A stretch of DNA of 64,000 nt from an uncultured Verrucomicrobiae bacterium (GTDB lineage: Bacteria > Verrucomicrobiota > Verrucomicrobiia > Limisphaerales > JAFGQR01). The stretch's first letter is position 1, and every line of letters begins with the position of its first letter. The notes under the pieces were generated by a model. It was not told the DNA's origin, searched no databases, and saw nothing but the letters and a program-made list of their open reading frames with translations. The position numbers and the translations under genes are program-made. Of this stretch, positions 2,335 through 59,132 are shown piece by piece. The stretch spans positions 32,001 to 96,000 of the forward strand of contig CAWBHS010000009.1 in assembly GCA_963788655.1 (NCBI GenBank). Reading direction: 5' to 3'.

Positions 2335-4080
2335 ATGAGTGAAGAACTGTCGCCATTGCGGGAACGGTTTGAACGGTTGAACCTGCTGTACCAGGTCAGC
2401 AATGTCATTCACTCGACGCTCGAACCCGAGGAAGCCCTGCAACTCATCGTTCGCGAAGCCGTTCGGCTGATGCGGGCCTCGAGCGGATCGGTGGCCCTGA
2501 TTAATCCCACCAACGGCTTCCTGGAAATCCAAGCCTGGGAAGGGTTGCCCGCGCATGCCGGCCGGTTGAAGCTGCGGGTCGGGGAAGGCATCACCGGCTG
2601 GGTCACCCGCCTGGGCCAACCCGCCCGCGTGGGAAACGTGCAGGCGGATCCGCGTTACGTCATGGTGCGCCCGGAAGTCCGTTCAGAAATGGCGGTGCCG
2701 TTGGCGGTGCGGGGCGAAATTTCCGGCGTCATCAACGTGGACTCGGATCGGCCCGAGGCCTTCAGTGAGAGCGATCTCGAATTGTTGGCTGAACTGGCCG
2801 TGCAAGCCGCGAAGGTCATTCAGAACACCTGGCTGTACGAACAGTTGCGGCTGAAGGCCCGGTTGTTGGAATCGTTGGTCAGCGTGGGCCAGACGATTAA
2901 TTCCACGTTGAACCTGGACGAAGCCCTCAAGGTGATTACCCGGGAAGCCTGTCACCTGATGGAAACCAAGATGTGCTCGTTGTTGCTGGTGGACGCGGAG
3001 CGCGCCGGTCTGGACCTGCGCGCGCACTTCGGCGCCGGCCAGGCGTATTTGGGAAAACCGCGTTTGAGCGTCACCGAGAGTCTGTTGGGCACGGTCGTTC
3101 GCCGCAAGAAACCATTGCAGGTGGAAAACGTGCAAACCTCGAGCCGTTACCAACACGTGGACATCGCGCAGGAGGAAGGATTGGTTTCCCTGCTCAGCGT
3201 GCCGTTGCTGTTTGCCGGCGAGGCCATCGGCACCTTGAATGTTTATTCGGGGCAACTCCATTTGTTCTCCAACGAGGAAATTCGCATCCTCTCGGCGCTG
3301 GCGGAGTTGTCGGCCATCGCCATTGAAAAGGCCCGGCTCTACGAACGCATCGTCGATATCGAGGAGCAGTTGCGGCAGAACGAAAAACTCAGCGCGCTCG
3401 GTTTGCTGGCGGCCGAAGTCGCTCACGAAATCCGCAATCCGCTCACGGTGATGAAGATGCTCTATCACTCGCTGGATTTGAATTTCCCGCTCACGGATCC
3501 GCGCGCCAAAGACGTGCAGATCATGGGGGAAAAGATGGATCAATTGAACAAGATCGTGGAACAAATCCTCGATTTCGCCCGAAGCAACGAGCCGCAAATC
3601 GCCCCCGTGGATGTCAACACCGTGCTCGAGGAGTTGAGTCTGCTCACCCGTCACAAGTTGCACCAGCAGCAAGTGGAATTCGTTAAGTATTTGGCGCCGG
3701 ACTTGCCGCCCATCCTGGCCGATGCTGCGCATTTGGAACAGGCTTTTCTCAACCTGACCTTGAATGCCGTGCAAGCCATGCCGAAAGGGGGACGGCTAAC
3801 CGTGACTACCCGCGCGGTCCAAACCGAGGACGTCGGGACCATGCTGCCACAGATTGTGATTGAATTCACTGATACGGGCGAAGGGATGACCCCCGAACGG
3901 CAAAAGCAAGCCTTTGCCTCGCTGTTAAACACCAGCAAGCAAGGCGGCACGGGTCTGGGATTGGCGATTGTGCGGCGGGTGGTGGAAGCGCATCAGGGCA
4001 CGGTGTCCATCCGTTCCCAGTCCGGCGAGGGAACCACCATCAGCATTGGCCTGCCGGTGCGAAGCAACGGGGCCGCGTAA
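2335..4080 (+). CDS. Cytoplasmic sensor histidine kinase with two GAF domains
   Basis: Two GAF repeats (GEGITGWV...SEMAVPL; SLLSVPL...GTLNVY), H-box AHEIRNPL, N-box NLTLNAVQAM, DTGEGM and GTGLGL boxes. Confidence 0.92.
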   Translation: MSEELSPLRERFERLNLLYQVSNVIHSTLEPEEALQLIVREAVRLMRASSGSVALINPTNGFLEIQAWEGLPAHAGRLKLRVGEGITGWVTRLGQPARVGNVQADPRYVMVRPEVRSEMAVPLAVRGEISGVINVDSDRPEAFSESDLELLAELAVQAAKVIQNTWLYEQLRLKARLLESLVSVGQTINSTLNLDEALKVITREACHLMETKMCSLLLVDAERAGLDLRAHFGAGQAYLGKPRLSVTESLLGTVVRRKKPLQVENVQTSSRYQHVDIAQEEGLVSLLSVPLLFAGEAIGTLNVYSGQLHLFSNEEIRILSALAELSAIAIEKARLYERIVDIEEQLRQNEKLSALGLLAAEVAHEIRNPLTVMKMLYHSLDLNFPLTDPRAKDVQIMGEKMDQLNKIVEQILDFARSNEPQIAPVDVNTVLEELSLLTRHKLHQQQVEFVKYLAPDLPPILADAAHLEQAFLNLTLNAVQAMPKGGRLTVTTRAVQTEDVGTMLPQIVIEFTDTGEGMTPERQKQAFASLLNTSKQGGTGLGLAIVRRVVEAHQGTVSIRSQSGEGTTISIGLPVRSNGAA

Positions 4081-41385: not shown

Positions 41386-41581
41386 TTCCCCTCACCCTGA
41401 CCCTCTGCCCAAGGAGAGGGAAGAGCGGTCGAACCTGCTCTTGTCTTTGAGCACGTCGCGACCGTCACCGCTTGCGTTGGATACGCGCGCCGGCGACGAA
41501 GTGCGGAAAAGTGCTCGCACTCTTCGCAGGGCGTCGAACGTGCTCCCTCTCCCCAAGGGAGAGGGCTGGGGTGAGGGGGAA
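41386..41581. repeat. Solo inverted pair of the CCCCTCACCC/GGGAGAGGG repeat (family D)
   Basis: TTCCCCTCACCCTGACCCTCTGCCCAAGGAGAGGGAA (41386) and CTCCCTCTCCCCAAGGGAGAGGGCTGGGGTGAGGGGGAA (ending 41581), ~118-bp spacer; same motif flanks the DUF559 gene. Confidence 0.85.
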
Positions 41582-53756: not shown

Positions 53757-54608
53757 TTAGTGGGTCATGGCGTAAAAGACGACGTTGACGGCAAGCGGGT
53801 AGGCAATCTTCTCGGAGAAGTGCTCGAAGTAATAGTGGTTGTCGCCTTCCCATTCCCAACCGTCGCCGTTGTCGGTGTTGTGGGTGGCGAACACCATGAT
53901 GCGGCCCTGGTCGTCGAAGATGGCCCGATGGTGTACTTCGTGGGCGTCGGGGCGTTCCCAGGTGACCCCCGTGTATTCGCTTTCGGTGCCGGTTTGGACG
54001 TTCGGGATCTGGCCTTTGGATTTGATGTCGAAGACGCAGTGGTAAAGCATGTTGGTCAGCGGCAGTTCGACAAAACTGCGGTCGCGAAAGACCTTCTTCA
54101 TCTGGTTCTCCATACTGTCCCATTCGCTTTCGCCCCAGAAGTCGTCGAGCCACAAAAAACCGCCGTTGAGCAGATACTTGCGCAAGGCAGCCGCTTCGTC
54201 GTCGTCGAGATAAAGGCTGCCGGGCTCGACCATGTAAATGAACGGATAGTCGGTCAGATGTTTGTCCGTGAGCCGCAGGAAGCGCCCGTTGGGATCGACT
54301 TTCAGGGCGGTCATTTGTTGCAAGCGATAGGAGAGATTGAGATCGCTGTCGGGTGCGTCGGTGTCCCAGGGTGCGCCCCGGCTGTAAGGCAGACTATCGC
54401 GCTTGATGCGGGCGAAAGTGAACACGTCCTTTTCGAAGCCGAACAGGTTGGTCCAGTTCGGCGTCTCGTAACCGTGTTGGGGAATGTCGCGCGGGGTTTG
54501 GTATTGATCGTTGTCGCGGTAATAATACCCCCGGCCATAACGGCGTTGGGCGAAGCCGCTGCTGGTGGCGAGCAGGAGGAGGAGAAGAAGTAAAGTGAGC
54601 GGTTTCAT
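53757..54608 (-). CDS. Secreted DUF4159 domain protein
   Basis: Signal peptide; [53 protein letters not shown]. Confidence 0.88.
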
Positions 54609-54623
54609 ACGTCAAAACCAATG

Positions 54624-55997
54624 GCAATCTCCGTCTTTTGTCCGTTCGCACCAAGGCCACACGATGAACTGAATGCGTCCAACATTTCAAACCAGCGGAA
54701 TGCAATTCTCCCTCTCCCCCGGGGAGAGGGCCGGGGTGAGGGGGAAGGAACCGCACCGCTACGCATGACGCTTGAAAATTGCCGAGGGCGCTCGCCGTTC
54801 AATGCGCACCGGTTGCGCAGGTCGAACGCGCCGTTCCCCCTCACCCTAACCCTCTCCCTGGGGGAGAGGGAACCGCAGGCGGACGATGCGAGAAGTTTGC
54901 AGGAAGCAACTGCAATCTCCGTCTTTTGTCCGTTCGCACCAAGGCCGCACGATGAACTGAATGCGTCCAATATTTCAAACCAGCGGAATGCAATTCTCCC
55001 TCTCCCCGCAGGAGAGGGCCGGGGTGAGGGGGAAGAGAACTTCCGACTTGCCGAACACGCCGACTTCGGCAGAATGCCGCCATGACTCCGCCCAAGTTCA
55101 CGAAGATCGCCCGCACTCTTCGTAAGCGCGACACGTGGGCTGAACAACTTCTTTGGAAGTGGCTTCGTGATCGGCGATTCTCCGCATACAAATTCCGCCG
55201 ACAGCATCCCTATCCTCCCTACATACTCGATTTCTTTTGTCTGGAAGCCTCGCTCAATATCGAACTCGACGGCGGGCAGCACGGAACGCCGGAAACCAAA
55301 AAGCGCGACATGGAACGCGATGCTTGGCTGGCGGCTCGTGGAATCAAAGTGCTTCGCTTTTGGAATGGCCGGTTGCGACGTGAAAAAGATGTCGTCCGGG
55401 ACGCCATTTGGAACGCGTTGCAGGAGCGGGCGCCCCAACCCATGCCGGAGTATTGCCGGCCGATGCAGCCAGGAGTGAAACCACGCGGAGTTTAGTGATC
55501 GCGCGCTGTTCCCCCTCACCCTAACCCTCTCCCTGAGGGAGAGGGAACAGCAGTCGAGCGATGCGAGTTGTTCGTAATTACCAGTGGCAATCTCCGCCTT
55601 TTGGCCGTTTGAACCAAGGCCGCATGATGAACCGAACCTGTCCAGCATCTCAAACCAGCAGAGTGCAATTCTCCCTCTCCCCCAGGGAGAGGGCCGGGGT
55701 GAGGGGGAAGGAGGCGTACGGCTATCCGATGCACTTGAAAATCGCTGAGGGCAATCGTTGTTCAATGCGGACCGGCTGCGCAGGTCGAACGCGCCGTTCC
55801 CCCTCGCCCTGACCCTCTCCCTCAGGGAGAGGGAACAGAAGTCGGATGATGCGAGTCGTTCGTAAAGACTAATTGCATGTCTCGCCCTTTGTCCGTTCGC
55901 ACCGAGGCCACACGATGAACTGAACGCGTTCAACATTTCCAACCAGCGGAGTCCGATTCTCCCTCTCCCCCAGGGAGAGGGCCGGGGTGAGGGGGAA
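54624..55997. repeat. 288-bp-period array of seven alternating family D palindromic repeats enclosing a DUF559 gene
   Basis: R at 54706, 54994, 55669, 55957; F at 54834, 55509, 55797; F-to-R spacers 121 bp, R-to-F spacers 87 bp except one 474-bp slot carrying the gene. Confidence 0.92.
55082..55495 (+). CDS. DUF559 (YcjD/Vsr-like PD-(D/E)XK) endonuclease
   Basis: ARTLRKRDTWAEQLLWKWLR, KFRRQHP, YILDFFC, IELDGGQH, RDAWLAARGIKVLRFWN. Confidence 0.92.
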   Translation: MTPPKFTKIARTLRKRDTWAEQLLWKWLRDRRFSAYKFRRQHPYPPYILDFFCLEASLNIELDGGQHGTPETKKRDMERDAWLAARGIKVLRFWNGRLRREKDVVRDAIWNALQERAPQPMPEYCRPMQPGVKPRGV

Positions 55998-56052
55998 GGA
56001 GACGCCTGCCCACCAGTGATAGGCACTTCACTCCGACCTGTGTGAACGGCGC

Positions 56053-58735
56053 TCATGTTTGGGGCTTGTTTTTCGCCGCGACACCGTCTTTTAGGACGGG
56101 GGCGGCCCGGTTCATTTCCAACAGTAATCGAAGCGCGGCGCGGAAGCGCGGAGCGTCTTCGAGGGCTTGCAACAGGTGGCGTTTGGCGGAATGGTCGCCG
56201 ATCTGATTGAGCAAACGCGCCAAGTTGTAATGGAGTTCCACCGGATTGGCGGGATCAAGTTTCAGCAGGGCCTGATATGCCTCGATGGCCGGTCGCGGTT
56301 CGCCCAGGGCCTCGCTGGCTTCCGCCAGGTAACGATGCGGCGGCGGCACGAGCGGATTGACGGCGAGATAACGGCGCGCATTCAGCGCTACGGCGGGCCA
56401 GTCTTTGGCGGCGGCGTCCAGTTCCATCAGGCGCAGATAGGCGTCGGTGGCGGCGGCGTCACGGGCGGCGAGTTGCTTCAGTGCCTGATGTTCGAGATTG
56501 GTTTCGTTCAGTTCCCGATGGGTCTGGGCCAGCATCCCGTACGCGTTGTCGGGGCCAAGGTAGTCCGGACATAGCTTGATGAGGGTTTCGAGCGGTGCTT
56601 TGGCTTCCTGCCATTGCCTGCCGGCAACCAACGTCTGCGCGCGATGCATCAAAGCATAGAAGTTTGTGGGATGAGCACTGGCCCACGTGGCCAATGCCTC
56701 GGGATCTAGTGCAGCGCGTTGTGGGGCAGTCGGTGCGTTTCGACGAGATTCCCCGTTCGCGCGGCCTTGGGCGAGTTGCTCCATCGGGGGCTTTTCCCAA
56801 TCGAGCGCCGGCCCCAGTGCTTTGGCGCGTTCCCGGGCAAACGCGGCGAAGTCTTTTTCCAGTGTGGCCATGGGTGCGGTGTGTGCCTCGATGGCGTGAT
56901 TGATTTCGGTGCCGTCCGCCAGGTCGTGCAATATGGCTTTCAGTTGCTCCAGGCCGAAACGCTTTACCAAAAACTCCACCACCAGCGACGATTCGTAGTA
57001 CGCCAAACTGAAGATGCTCCGGCGTGGGCGGTGCGAGAAAGGCGCTGCTCAAATCGGCAATGGGCGTCAGTCCATCATCAAGGACCATTTCCCGATACCG
57101 CGGTGTCATACGTTGGCCCCAAGTCGGATTGGTCTGGCTTTCCTCATAGACCGAAATGCCTTCGCTTAGCCAACGGGGCATTTTGTTGCGGGTCAATTGC
57201 AGCGTGACGACATGACAAAACTCGTGCCAGAGCACCGCCTGCCAATTGGCCGCGTGCGCTGATGGCGAGGCGGGACTGTTGGCAGTGATCACCCGGCCAA
57301 AGCAGACGCCGAGATAGCCGGGGTTGTCCGGCATGCCGAACGTGCGCACGCCGAAATCCTTTGGATCGGGGAAGATCTCCACCACCGTGGGCTGCTTGAT
57401 TTCGAGCCCGTATTTCGCGCACAGGTTGCTCTTGGCTTGGTCCAGCAACGCCAACGCGCGCTGCCCGTAAATGTCTGCTTCGTCCCCCTTCATCCGCACG
57501 ATGAAATCGCGGTTGGTGACGGTTTGGAACTTCTGCATGGTTTCGCGCAGGGTGACCAGGTTGTAAGCCGTGACATCGTAGCCGTCCTCATCGTGAACTT
57601 TCTCCGCCATTGCCCAACCTTCTGCTTCGTCGCCCAAACGCAGCAGGTCCTGCGCAAGTTGGGCTTTGGCGGGCAGGTAATCGGCGTCAAACGCCAGCGC
57701 CTGGCGTTGGTGCGCCGCGCCTTCAGCGAACCGGTATTTTTGCGACAGCTTTAGGCCAATCAAATACTCGACACGCGGATTGGTCTTCCAAAAGCGCAAG
57801 GCGGTTTCGCGGGCGGCTTGCTCTTTGTCCGGGTGGTTTTCCAAATGTTCGATCACCGCCTGGTAGGCCCAGGCGTCGGGGTGCCAGGGATTAACCTCGC
57901 GAATACGGTCCAGCACCTTGGTGGCGCCGGCATATTCCTCCGCGTCGATCAAATGGTCCACCATCAACAGCAGACTGGGCACGTGATTGGTGTTCTGGTT
58001 CAGCGCGGCGGCAAGTTCGCCCTGCATCTGGATCTGTTCGCTGGGCGCATAAGCGCGGGCCAGACCGTAGTGGAAGTCAGGGTCGTCAGGGAAACGCTTG
58101 AGCCCTTCGCGATACACTTTGGCGGCCAGTTCAAAGTCGTGTTTGTCTAAAGACAGTTCACCGCTGGCCAGGTAAGCCTCGCGCAAATCCGGATCCTCGC
58201 GTTTGGCCGAATCATACACCTGTTCGAGAATCAGTCGCGGATCGGCGCCCAACAGCAAGAGCGTCCGGCCAAAAGCCAGCCGGTTGACCGGATCCCGATA
58301 GGCCCAGGGGCGGGTCCGGATCAGCAGGTTGATTTGCCGCAGCATGCTCTCGGCCTCGTCGGTCTGACCGTTGCTCAAATACACTTCCCGACCCAGCAGG
58401 CGCAGCCGGATGCTCGTGGAGTATTGCTCGAGCGCATTGGTGATGGCCGACCGCGCCTCGGCATATCGGCCCAGCGTGAGCAACGTTTTGGCGCGCACCA
58501 ACCGCCAGTCCTCCTGATACCGGTCATTGCGAATCGCCTCCTCCGCCATCGCCAAAGCATTGGTGTAGTGGCCGGTACGGAACTGGTCCCAAGCGTCATC
58601 CGGATCGGCGCCGTGAACGGCGGTTGCGGCGACTCCGAGGCCGGTGACCAAAGTCAGAACGAAGGCGACGATGGCCTGCCGCCAGCAGCAAATCGCCCCG
58701 CAAGTGCGGTTTGCGTTCTGACTAATCTCGAACAT
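56053..58735 (-). CDS. Secreted TPR protein with peptidase MA (gluzincin-like) domain; one frameshift near 57005 (alternative start 58768)
   Basis: Signal peptide, many TPRs, LWHEFCHVV (HExxH) plus PRWLSEGISVYEE, AYYESSLVVEFL, C-terminal TPRs. Confidence 0.85.
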
Positions 58736-59132
58736 GCCTGTATCTAAACCCATTTGCTCTGATAACACAAGGACGGCTACCGGGAATGTTTGGCTTTCCC
58801 CGGCCCATCATCCATCGCCGGCATTCCTTCAATCTCAATCAATGTCTTCACATTGGAACGCTGTGGGATGGGCCAACGGCGATCCGATCTTGTCCGGCAG
58901 GATGTCACAATCCCGGCGCGGGTCAAACTCGGAACCCAAGGAGAGAGGATGGGGAATCCGAAGGTCGAAGGCCGAAATCCGAAAGAAATCCGAAATCCCG
59001 ATAGCAGCTCGGTTCTTATTTCTGCGACGTTTCAACTCCTCCACGGCCGCTCCGTTTCGGTTGACTGTCGCCAGCCCTCCTCGTTAGTCTGTTGGCTTGA
59101 ATTAACCAATAACAACCAGCTTCTAAGTGTGT

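Follow-up and report, generated by a model that had tools for sequence, protein, structure and literature searches.

BoxC repeats have been known since the 1990s and were renamed potential intrastrand triplex (PIT) elements in 2000 (PMC4666352). Here we describe an array of such repeats in a 64,000-nucleotide stretch of DNA from an uncultured Verrucomicrobiae bacterium (assembly GCA_963788655.1, contig CAWBHS010000009.1, positions 32,001 to 96,000 of the forward strand; "the window" below means this whole stretch), in which one of the spaces between repeats holds an intact gene for a DUF559 protein, a putative nuclease of the PD-(D/E)XK group. Genes of this kind are found next to the same repeat in many bacterial phyla, and variants of the repeat follow clades of the protein. 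On balance, we think it probable, if not strongly so, that gene and repeats form a selfish system of a nuclease and its cognate repeats, a functional counterpart of REP-associated tyrosine transposases (RAYTs; REP, repetitive extragenic palindromic sequence) and the REP doublets forming hairpins (REPINs).

The published account on which we draw most calls the repeats triplex motifs (TMs) or, in Escherichia coli, TMECO. The parts of that paper used here report TMs in more than 260 genomes and list, in Table 1, 23 sequences from E. coli MG1655, for example, CCCTCTCCCTGTGGGAGAGGGCCGGGGTGAGGGC (type B) and CCCTCTCCCTGAGGGAGAGGGTTAGGGTGAGGGG (type A) (PMC4666352). All five pairs that are readable in this E. 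coli table combine an A with a B copy (PMC4666352). An isolated single strand folds in vitro into an intrastrand triplex that is stable, and TM loci are more rearranged between E. coli strains (PMC4666352). In the same parts of the text, Holder et al. state that transposases and integrases were never found near TMs (PMC4666352). They name no associated enzyme, and neither "endonuclease" nor "ycjD" occurs in the main text of their paper (PMC4666352).

The protein side has been approached separately. A survey of PD-(D/E)XK proteins places Vsr, DUF559, and the homing endonuclease I-Bth0305I together (PMC3424549). I-Bth0305I is described as a homodimer acting on a pseudopalindrome centered on its cut site (PMC3239194), and a DUF559 protein of Caulobacter, VsrA, has been proposed, in the portion of the work consulted, to be a mismatch-repair nuclease with a functional link to a cytosine methyltransferase (PMC12907096).

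RESULTS

A nuclease gene within an array of triplex motifs

Within positions 54609 to 56052, the window carries seven copies of an element of about 40 nt, a hairpin plus a tail, three in forward (F) and four in reverse (R) orientation, with a period of 288 bp. The core of each copy is 38 nt long, and the arms of F and R are 84 to 92% complementary. The TM consists of a 9-bp G/C-rich hairpin (CCCTCTCCC-loop-GGGAGAGGG) and a third block, CCCTCACCC, a mirror of the stem; the sequence of F copies is TTCC-CCCTCACCC-TAA/TGA-CCCTCTCCC-loop-GGGAGAGGG-AA, and R copies are the inverse, with CCG replacing TTA. The published form of the BoxC/PIT/TMECO repeat, CCCTCTCCC-loop-GGGAGAGGG-(TTA or CCG)-GGGTGAGGG, agrees with the window repeats almost base for base (PMC4666352), and its three-block layout (a pyrimidine arm, a complementary purine arm after a short loop, and the G-rich GGGTGAGGG after a TTA or CCG spacer) is present in the window copies. 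A first-pass annotation of this DNA had not recognized the repeat; judged by its sequence, it is the BoxC/PIT/TMECO triplex motif that was already in the literature (PMC4666352), F copies being of type A and R copies of type B, and the repeat itself is not new. A search of Rfam gave only far-sub-threshold look-alikes of microRNA precursors (23 to 36 bits, against gathering scores of 71 to 168). The parts of the array are as follows.

54609..56052, unstranded: whole inserted block, array plus DUF559 cassette, 1.45 kb between two ATGA junctions
54624..54708, unstranded: A interior at the array's left edge, truncated and lacking its F partner (part of a direct-repeat copy, D1, at 54539-54766, 69% alike)
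54709..54746, minus strand: R1, triplex-motif repeat of type B (CCG spacer)
54747..54833, unstranded: B interior, measuring 87 nt from tail to tail (95 nt from one motif core to the other in the genome-wide count), without a DUF559 remnant
54834..54871, plus strand: F1, triplex-motif repeat of type A (TAA spacer)
54872..54996, unstranded: A interior, 125 nt; F1, this interior, and R2 make up a REPIN-like inverted doublet with a hairpin fold
54997..55034, minus strand: R2, type B repeat, upstream end of the DUF559 cassette
55082..55495, plus strand: DUF559 gene (YcjD-like, predicted Vsr-fold PD-(D/E)XK), intact, 137 amino acids (aa), Pfam PF04480
55509..55546, plus strand: F2, type A repeat, downstream end of the DUF559 cassette
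55547..55671, unstranded: A interior
55672..55709, minus strand: R3, type B repeat
55710..55796, unstranded: B interior
55797..55834, plus strand: F3, type A repeat (TGA spacer; G instead of A in the tail)
55835..55959, unstranded: A interior
55960..55997, minus strand: R4, type B repeat

Between the 38-nt cores, the gaps are 125 nt from F to R and 87 nt from R to F; the exceptional R-to-F slot, 55035-55508, is 474 nt long and holds the DUF559 gene. We thus find the alternating repeats, the 87-bp slots, and the 474-bp slot with its gene as the first-pass annotation had described them, and its figure of 121 bp for the F-to-R spacing differs from our 125 nt because the borders of the repeats had been set slightly longer. 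A family of direct repeats, D1, starts at 54539, 54827, 55502, and 55790, that is, at spacings of 288, 675, and 288 bp. Tandem Repeats Finder reported no array in the window; the units are only about 80 to 84% alike, and the array is split by the gene. The units of the array itself are about 84% alike, and isolated units of the same build (F, A interior, R) elsewhere in the genome are 70 to 85% identical to those of the window; therefore, the array is not a recent duplication. One such unit (54830-55040) folds as a single long hairpin of -53.2 kcal/mol (z -6.4), with none of 200 shuffled sequences as stable.

The DUF559 protein is related to YcjD and is predicted to have a Vsr-like fold

The gene in the odd slot had been called an intact DUF559 gene, antisense to the surrounding operon, and this is what we see: it runs from 55082 to 55495 on the plus strand, encodes 137 aa, and matches Pfam PF04480 with an E value of 4e-33 (114 bits against a cutoff of 20.6, with profile positions 3-108 of 109 covered). 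Over its full length, the protein shares 46% identity with E. coli YcjD, and its score with the NCBIfam YcjD model, 97.5 bits, lies under the equivalog cutoff of 218. An alignment of 16 relatives has 16 invariant columns, and the protein keeps every one, D50, E61, and D63 among them, with H67 nearly invariant; these four would be candidate catalytic residues of a putative PD-(D/E)XK, Vsr-like core.

Structural comparison points the same way. The AlphaFold (AF2) model has a predicted local distance difference test (pLDDT) score of 85.2, and the structure nearest to it is that of NGO0050 of Neisseria gonorrhoeae (PDB 3hrl), which the sequence also matches (E value, 9e-31). Among Foldseek matches with a named activity, the nearest is the catalytic domain of I-Bth0305I (3r3p; E value, 3.2e-4; structural TM-score, 0.81; probability, 1.00); Vsr (1vsr) ranks 12th, with an E value of 0.037. 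By its model, then, the protein has the fold of Vsr and of homing endonucleases, with the acidic residues kept. A search with PADLOC for defense systems returned only a weak, partial match to DpdF (1.7e-8). Relatives of the protein occur on 42 plasmid records, mostly of very large replicons, and on 1 phage record, with no obvious vehicle.

Small DUF559 genes lie next to triplex motifs in many phyla

The genome to which the window belongs (G000) is a metagenome-assembled genome (MAG) of 8.96 Mb in 115 contigs, with a G+C content of 59.6%. Of its four DUF559 matches, three are small genes, and their distances to a TM are 1, 7, and 67 bp; the 100-bp surroundings of TMs make up no more than 0.46% of the genome, and 0.0046 cubed is about 1e-7. 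The fourth, a weak domain match in a large frame, lies 79 kb from any TM. That the repeat would co-occur with DUF559 genes and be enriched near them had been predicted from the window, and it holds at every scale looked at: for all three small genes of this genome, in 8 of 10 repeat-rich genomes of the order, and at 61 of 80 and 90 of 95 loci over phyla.

Within the order, small DUF559 genes are patchy, being found in 10 of 31 genomes. They are present (E value below 1e-25) in 8 of the 10 genomes with at least 20 canonical TMs, compared to 2 of the 21 with fewer than 20 (Fisher's exact test, one sided, P = 2e-4, a value inflated by relatedness, as kin among the 31 genomes are not independent). 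Weak DUF559 hits in the repeat-rich genomes G021 and G030 were considered as hidden cassettes and rejected, as each proved to be the C-terminal domain of a large helicase-like protein that has no TM near.

For the wider sample, one genome per species was scanned, and the best 80 of at least 593 confirmed relatives were taken. These loci span Verrucomicrobiota, Chloroflexota, Alpha-, Beta-, and Gammaproteobacteria, Myxococcota, Thermodesulfobacteriota, and others, with a few doubtful labels. A canonical TM lies within 250 bp of the gene at 61 of the 80 loci and on both sides at 39; up to 150 bp from the gene, TMs occur at 4.5 per kb, compared to 0.14 per kb in the remainder of the same loci, a 33-fold difference. 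A motif-agnostic detector, which asks for a pyrimidine-rich hairpin with a mirror tail, was run on 95 loci (the 80 plus 15 genes from the order) and found a motif within 200 bp in 90 of them, on both sides in 67, with densities of 5.3 versus 0.14 per kb, or 37-fold. The five loci with no motif detected are L014, L086, L087, L088, and L096.

Several of the records with cassettes (L029, L051, L062-L064, L071, L077, and L101) are labeled Bifidobacteriaceae or Bifidobacterium and nest among Verrucomicrobiota on the tree of the protein. The organism labels of these MAGs look doubtful.

The commonest arrangement is hairpin-tail, gene, tail-hairpin (32 of the 80 loci, counting the canonical pattern within 150 bp), and a full inverted doublet often stands on one or both sides of the gene, as it does in the window. 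Opposite polarity of the repeats is seen in a clade of three, made up of two copies on contig C37 and locus L002. In 18 of 43 tail-in cassettes (loci L022-L101), the two flanking TMs have the same loop, which is true of 2 of 59 ordinary doublets of genome G000; the flanking TMs that share a loop still keep differing A and B spacers. Comparison of the sequences indicates that a conserved cassette, consisting of a predicted Vsr-fold nuclease gene between an inverted pair of TMs, travels between phyla; where the gene is present in a genome, gene-less copies of the same TM variant tend to be numerous.

Variants of the motif follow clades of the nuclease

On a quickly made maximum-likelihood tree (93 rows, five with stops having been left out; many forks unresolved), the flanking TMs follow DUF559 clades in their loop sequence, their spacer type, and their distance from the gene. 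One clade of seven, with a support of 99, carries a variant TM with the stem CCCTCTCCTCC/GGAGGAGAGGG and the tail GGGAGAGGAGG, an exact mirror of the stem arm. The mirror relation covaries, the arm GGAGGAGAGGG going with the tail GGGAGAGGAGG and the arm GGGGAGAGGG with the tail GGGAGAGGGG.

The hairpin of this variant was counted over the 31 genomes of the order. There are 23 copies in G019, 22 in G003, 11 in G006, 9 in G026, and 6 in G005; four genomes have 1 to 3, and 22 have none. The nuclease of the variant clade is encoded by G003, G006, and G019, exactly the three genomes with the most variant hairpins, for which the chance expectation is 1 in 4,495. Genomes G000 and G016, with 141 and 152 canonical TMs, have no variant copies. 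By these sequence comparisons, TM variants track nuclease clades.

Census and anatomy of the repeat in its own genome

The motif as written in the first-pass annotation occurs 126 times in genome G000, and a fuzzy full-length pattern occurs 174 to 176 times; as a control, the reversed fuzzy pattern gave no match in this genome and 2 over the 31 genomes. Conservation of the sequence falls off fast beyond TTCC...GGGAGAGGGAAC. By spacer, 87 copies are of type A and 89 of type B. The copies occur mostly as inverted pairs: 59 are tail-out doublets with interiors of 67, 103, or 125 to 127 nt, and 15 are tail-in pairs, whose motif cores stand 95 nt apart (the 87-nt slot of the array). An A spacer is paired with a B spacer in 56 of the 59 tail-out and in all 15 tail-in doublets.

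Read from the sequence, A (TAA/TGA) and B (CGG/CAG) differ by transitions only, and therefore, when a doublet folds back, T.G and A.C mismatches arise at a set distance from the hairpin. An isolated example within the window lies 13 kb from the array.

41389..41577, unstranded (contig C9 73389-73577): the same repeat as an isolated inverted doublet (interior, 124 nt)

The array entered an operon and kept one frame open

The genes around the array are all on the minus strand and encode BatA-like, DUF58, MoxR-type AAA, DUF4159, and TPR/peptidase-MA-like proteins. The two immediate neighbors are as follows.

53757..54608, minus strand: DUF4159 gene, downstream operon neighbor (Pfam E value, 5.9e-46)
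56053..57006, minus strand: TPR/peptidase-MA-like gene, 3' part, upstream operon neighbor, contiguous with the 56459-58768 frame in relatives

In relatives, the two genes adjoin. It had been suggested that the block between the TPR and DUF4159 genes be looked for in relatives, and it is absent from all three that were checked (G005, G026, and G016, from other families of the same order, with DUF4159 proteins 67%, 57%, and 55% identical); there, the TPR gene runs into the DUF4159 gene with no repeat between them. The overlap of the two genes is 4 bp in G005 and G026, with the sequence ATGA in G005, and ATGA stands at both ends of the block in the window (56056-56053 and 54608-54605). On this comparison of sequences, the block was inserted where the TPR and DUF4159 genes meet, at their ATGA junction.

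The TPR/peptidase-MA-like gene itself is split in the window into two overlapping frames (56459-58768 and 56053-57006, minus strand), where the matching parts in G005 form a single continuous frame, which suggests that a frameshift or an assembly error lies beside the insert.

The frame that reads across the insert in the sense of the operon (54605..56056, minus strand) has no stop in its 483 to 484 codons, compared to 6 to 15 stops in each of the other five frames, and both 288 and 675 are divisible by three. One could take this to mean that the 288-bp periodicity is that of a genuine operon gene for a repeat protein of 483 aa, and the stop-free frame, the ATGA overlaps at both of its ends, and the multiples of three would all suit such a gene. 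Against this, the frame is missing in all three relatives, its translation is of low complexity and has no match in Pfam, and the ratio of nonsynonymous to synonymous substitutions (dN/dS) between units is 0.62 to 0.80 in the open frame, much as in the others (0.53 to 1.03); moreover, its units are copies of a dispersed noncoding repeat. We consequently reject the 483-aa frame as a genuine protein and regard such a gene as very improbable. Because the translation is of low complexity and without a Pfam match and dN/dS is like that of the other frames, the open frame is probably one tolerated for readthrough or coupling rather than a conserved protein under selection.

The core repeat is free of stop codons in five of six frames. 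Similar settings occur elsewhere in the genome. A second array, on contig C99 (24785-26767, locus L117), has a period of 462 bp and four units and lies inside a stop-free frame of 660 codons that joins genes for glycosyltransferases of families 9 and 4; only one of the six frames is open there. On contig C37 (1-13500, locus L116), two DUF559 cassettes and several single repeats occur in a type I restriction-modification locus. One cassette with its two repeats is inside hsdR: the 5' open reading frame (ORF) covers positions 1-88 of the SWI2/SNF2 ATPase profile, and the 3' ORF covers positions 110-216, with the DUF559 domain in frame ahead of it. The two parts of hsdR are in different frames, the switch falling just ahead of the cassette, and the gene is therefore either frameshifted or misassembled. 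Single repeats also sit in frame within hsdS and close to the hsdR start. The second cassette heads the contig, in frame with what we take, from familiar motifs and not from a Pfam match, to be the end of hsdM.

These settings bear on the idea that the protein is a housekeeping repair enzyme, that is, a Vsr-like mismatch-repair nuclease of the kind proposed for Caulobacter VsrA, with the repeats regulatory or incidental. The predicted Vsr fold and the functional link of the Caulobacter protein to a cytosine methyltransferase, as given in the part of that study used here (PMC12907096), would fit. No cytosine-5 methyltransferase gene adjoins the gene in the window, where the neighbors are repeats and the TPR and DUF4159 genes (an unlinked partner, as in Caulobacter, is possible). 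The gene came with an insertion that relatives lack and is patchy among the 31 genomes, TMs are enriched 33- to 37-fold around genes of this kind and their variants are specific to clades, and cassettes can sit in frame inside hsdR. We judge a housekeeping role quite improbable as the explanation of this locus.

The E. coli homolog

In E. coli MG1655, a type A BoxC lies 167 bp past the stop codon of ycjD, with none on the other side, and ycjD is the only DUF559 gene annotated in the stretch examined. The ycjD region is present in 3,346 to 3,377 of 5,426 complete E. coli genomes (about 62%). In the interval between fabI and sapF (loci L102 and L112), there are two alternatives: BoxC plus ycjD, or an island with a TetR regulator, an RND efflux pump, and an MFS transporter. 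We had considered E. coli as a source of a clean empty site and rejected it, since the strains without ycjD carry the efflux-pump island there. BoxC counts are 20 and 25 in two chromosomes with ycjD and 2 and 15 in two without; the direction fits, but two chromosomes against two are too few and the comparison is confounded by lineage, and we do not count it as evidence.

DISCUSSION

The DUF559 gene of the window lies between inverted triplex motifs, and so do many of its relatives in other phyla. As stated above, we think it probable on balance that the gene and the TMs together are a selfish system in which a nuclease and its cognate repeats correspond in function to a RAYT and its REPINs. 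The first-pass annotation had proposed just such a REPIN-RAYT-like system built on a non-HUH nuclease. Its comparative predictions were all borne out; what finds no support is the reading of the 87-bp slots as "empty" versions of the cassette. These slots keep no residual similarity to DUF559 (best E value, 0.95), so that their position is what remains of that argument.

How might such a system work? We imagine that each clade of nucleases recognizes its own TM variant. The form recognized could be the interrupted palindrome in duplex DNA, bound by a dimer in the manner of I-Bth0305I; a folded single strand; or the mismatches of an A/B doublet. The fixed T.G and A.C mismatches of folded A/B doublets may have a role in recognition; Vsr itself recognizes T:G. 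By nicking or cutting TMs, the nuclease would provoke repair and recombination by the host, and repair could then copy the cassette to other motif sites, homogenize the motifs, and build arrays. Cutting and repair together would also produce the instability measured by Holder et al. Spread of this sort would resemble homing more than the cut-and-paste of a transposase. To our knowledge, no joining activity has been described for a PD-(D/E)XK hydrolase, and this counts among the difficulties; as a hydrolase cannot join DNA, the system would be an analog of REPIN-RAYT and not a member of it, with no transposase in the RAYT sense.

Several further observations weigh against this explanation. We could not define a mobile unit with set ends. 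No obvious target-site duplication was visible by eye at the flanks of 44 isolated doublets, only extended inverted arms, and in an empty-site comparison with a genome of the same genus (G001), the DNA matches were limited to the repeats, that genome being too diverged for a target duplication to be read. No remnant of DUF559 was found in 81 repeat interiors (the 95-nt and the 67-, 103-, and 127-nt classes, searched in six frames with hmmsearch; best E value, 0.95). The promoter and terminator scan found no promoter-like site upstream of the DUF559 gene on its own strand. The cassette of the window, with B upstream and A downstream, has one of the rarer layouts (4 of 43 cassettes, as against 26 of 43 with A and then B), for which inversion of the gene between its inverted ends would fit. 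At the level of the motif, the triplex went undetected in duplex DNA and by in vivo footprinting, according to the part of the published account used here (PMC4666352). As to sampling, the MAG is 86% complete with 5.6% contamination, and the 80 loci are the closest YcjD-like relatives, obtained via one peptide pattern, so that the figures over phyla cover that subfamily only.

Genes and repeats are also not in balance. Two genomes of the order, G021 (102 canonical TMs, 94% complete) and G030 (25 TMs, 96% complete), are without a small DUF559 gene; E. coli NZRM4165, which lacks ycjD, still has 15 TMs; and an Archangium genome has 544 exact hairpins for a single DUF559 gene. Four other genomes compare as follows.

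G032: 30 exact hairpins, 4 DUF559 genes
G033: 13 exact hairpins, 1 DUF559 gene
G034: 18 exact hairpins, 2 DUF559 genes
G035: 12 exact hairpins, 1 DUF559 gene

Finally, genome G000 has a 244-bp element resembling a miniature inverted-repeat transposable element (MITE), with TA at both ends, in 12 full-length copies on 11 contigs that are 94 to 98% identical (for example, C49 233630-233873). It has weak terminal inverted repeats (CTGATGAG...CTGCACAG) and, in its center, an A/B doublet with a 67-nt interior; thus, part of the multiplication of TMs is by hitchhiking in another element.

That imbalance is one ground for supposing that the cassette homes and does nothing else. The DUF559 gene would then be a free-standing selfish gene of the homing type, with TMs serving as its landing pads and homology arms and being multiplied by other means: TM sites without the gene would be cut and repair would copy the gene in, and the TMs themselves would not be spread. 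The protein's predicted fold is nearest to that of a true homing endonuclease; in its cassettes, the gene has a TM on each side in every case, whichever the polarity (tail-in or tail-out); there are one to four copies of the gene for tens to hundreds of TMs; TMs persist in the three genomes in which no small DUF559 gene was found; and they multiply inside a MITE of another kind. The matching of clades to variants would be equally expected. What tells against it is that a genome with at least 170 potential landing sites should have gained more copies of the gene, that flanking TMs share their loop far more often than those of ordinary doublets (18 of 43 versus 2 of 59), which fits ends that travel with the gene, and that a TM core nearly identical from E. 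coli to Verrucomicrobiota would be left unexplained. We rate homing without spread of the repeats as unlikely, though it deserves to be taken seriously.

The 244-bp element also raises the possibility that TMs are moved by some other enzyme, either a transposase acting on larger MITEs or a RAYT, with the DUF559 gene being merely cargo or a gene whose neighborhood TMs favor. Apart from the 12 copies of that element with their central doublet, the genome has 12 hits to Y1 transposases (Y1_Tnp). For each of these, the contig either carries no TM or has its nearest one 4.7 kb or more away, and Holder et al., in the part of their paper cited here, report no transposase near the TMs of E. coli (PMC4666352). 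Further, DUF559 genes are flanked by TMs in phyla whose content of mobile elements is unrelated, and variant TMs go with variant nucleases. A passenger role for the nuclease therefore seems improbable to us.

Returning to the reading in which the nuclease acts on its own repeats, one can envision a more general form of it. YcjD-like DUF559 proteins would be the missing partner enzymes of BoxC/PIT/TMECO repeats throughout bacteria, with recognition specific to each clade, perhaps at the mismatches of a folded A/B doublet or at the triplex; cutting would drive the spread, homogenization, and instability of the repeats; and the whole would be a second partnership of the REPIN-RAYT kind, hydrolytic and able to live in frame inside genes and operons. 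We regard this general form as a tentative proposal, possible but somewhat short of what we would bet on.

If it is true, repeats that were orphans gain a partner enzyme, where before only an association with genome instability was known, as reported in the sections cited of PMC4666352; the widespread DUF559 domain, including ycjD of E. coli K-12, gains a function; and partnerships between a repeat and a dedicated enzyme extend beyond HUH transposases. There is also a consequence for annotation, as the elements settle in operons and genes with a frame kept open (in the window, on C37, and on C99), with a risk of spurious or chimeric predicted proteins. The repeat and the protein family are both known, and the pairing of DUF559 with TMs seems to be unpublished: a search judged from titles and abstracts, with subscription journals and supplements outside it, found no publication linking DUF559, ycjD, or Vsr-like nucleases with these repeats, and none of the DUF559 publications listed in it describes an assay of a small DUF559 protein.

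Comparison with known systems

Rickettsia palindromic elements are palindromic repeats tolerated in frame inside protein-coding genes, and we know of no enzyme that goes with them. TMs share with them the position in frame within genes (hsdR and hsdS on contig C37); the two are unrelated in sequence and host range.

Among nucleases, YcjD, NGO0050 (3hrl), and Caulobacter VsrA, the last as presented in the part of its description used here (PMC12907096), belong to the same Pfam family as the window protein. I-Bth0305I, of the EDxHD family (PDB 3r3p), resembles it in its Vsr-like fold, to judge from the model, and is, in the account consulted, the nuclease of a selfish gene (PMC3239194). Unlike the window protein, with which it shares only 19% identity, I-Bth0305I has several domains and resides in a phage group I intron (PMC3239194, in the same passages). 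The DUF559 protein is a single domain of about 110 aa, free-standing or in frame in host genes, and has repeats instead of an intron; no intron or intein features were seen at the cassette, and some cassettes are in frame in host genes.

The elements of the window resemble the BoxC/PIT/TMECO repeats of E. coli in forming inverted A/B pairs, in being present in tens to hundreds of copies, and in being mostly intergenic. They differ from E. coli BoxC in their larger, family-specific units (doublets of 67, 103, and 125 to 127 nt) and their long arrays, with periods of 288 and 462 bp, and in that some repeats are in frame in genes and one slot holds a nuclease gene.

Unlike REPs, which differ between species, the TM has a third, mirror block, and its core is nearly identical over phyla. 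In other respects, the likeness to REPIN-RAYT systems is close, as far as these are set out in the parts of the literature used here: inverted doublets that fold as hairpins are dispersed in many gene-less copies, and a low-copy enzyme gene lies between its own repeats, the repeat variant matching the clade of the enzyme (PMC3116915). The enzyme is where the two part ways. A RAYT is a tyrosine transposase of the HUH/Y1 kind, whereas the DUF559 protein is predicted to be a hydrolytic PD-(D/E)XK enzyme with a Vsr fold, and the chemistry by which its repeats spread must differ accordingly.

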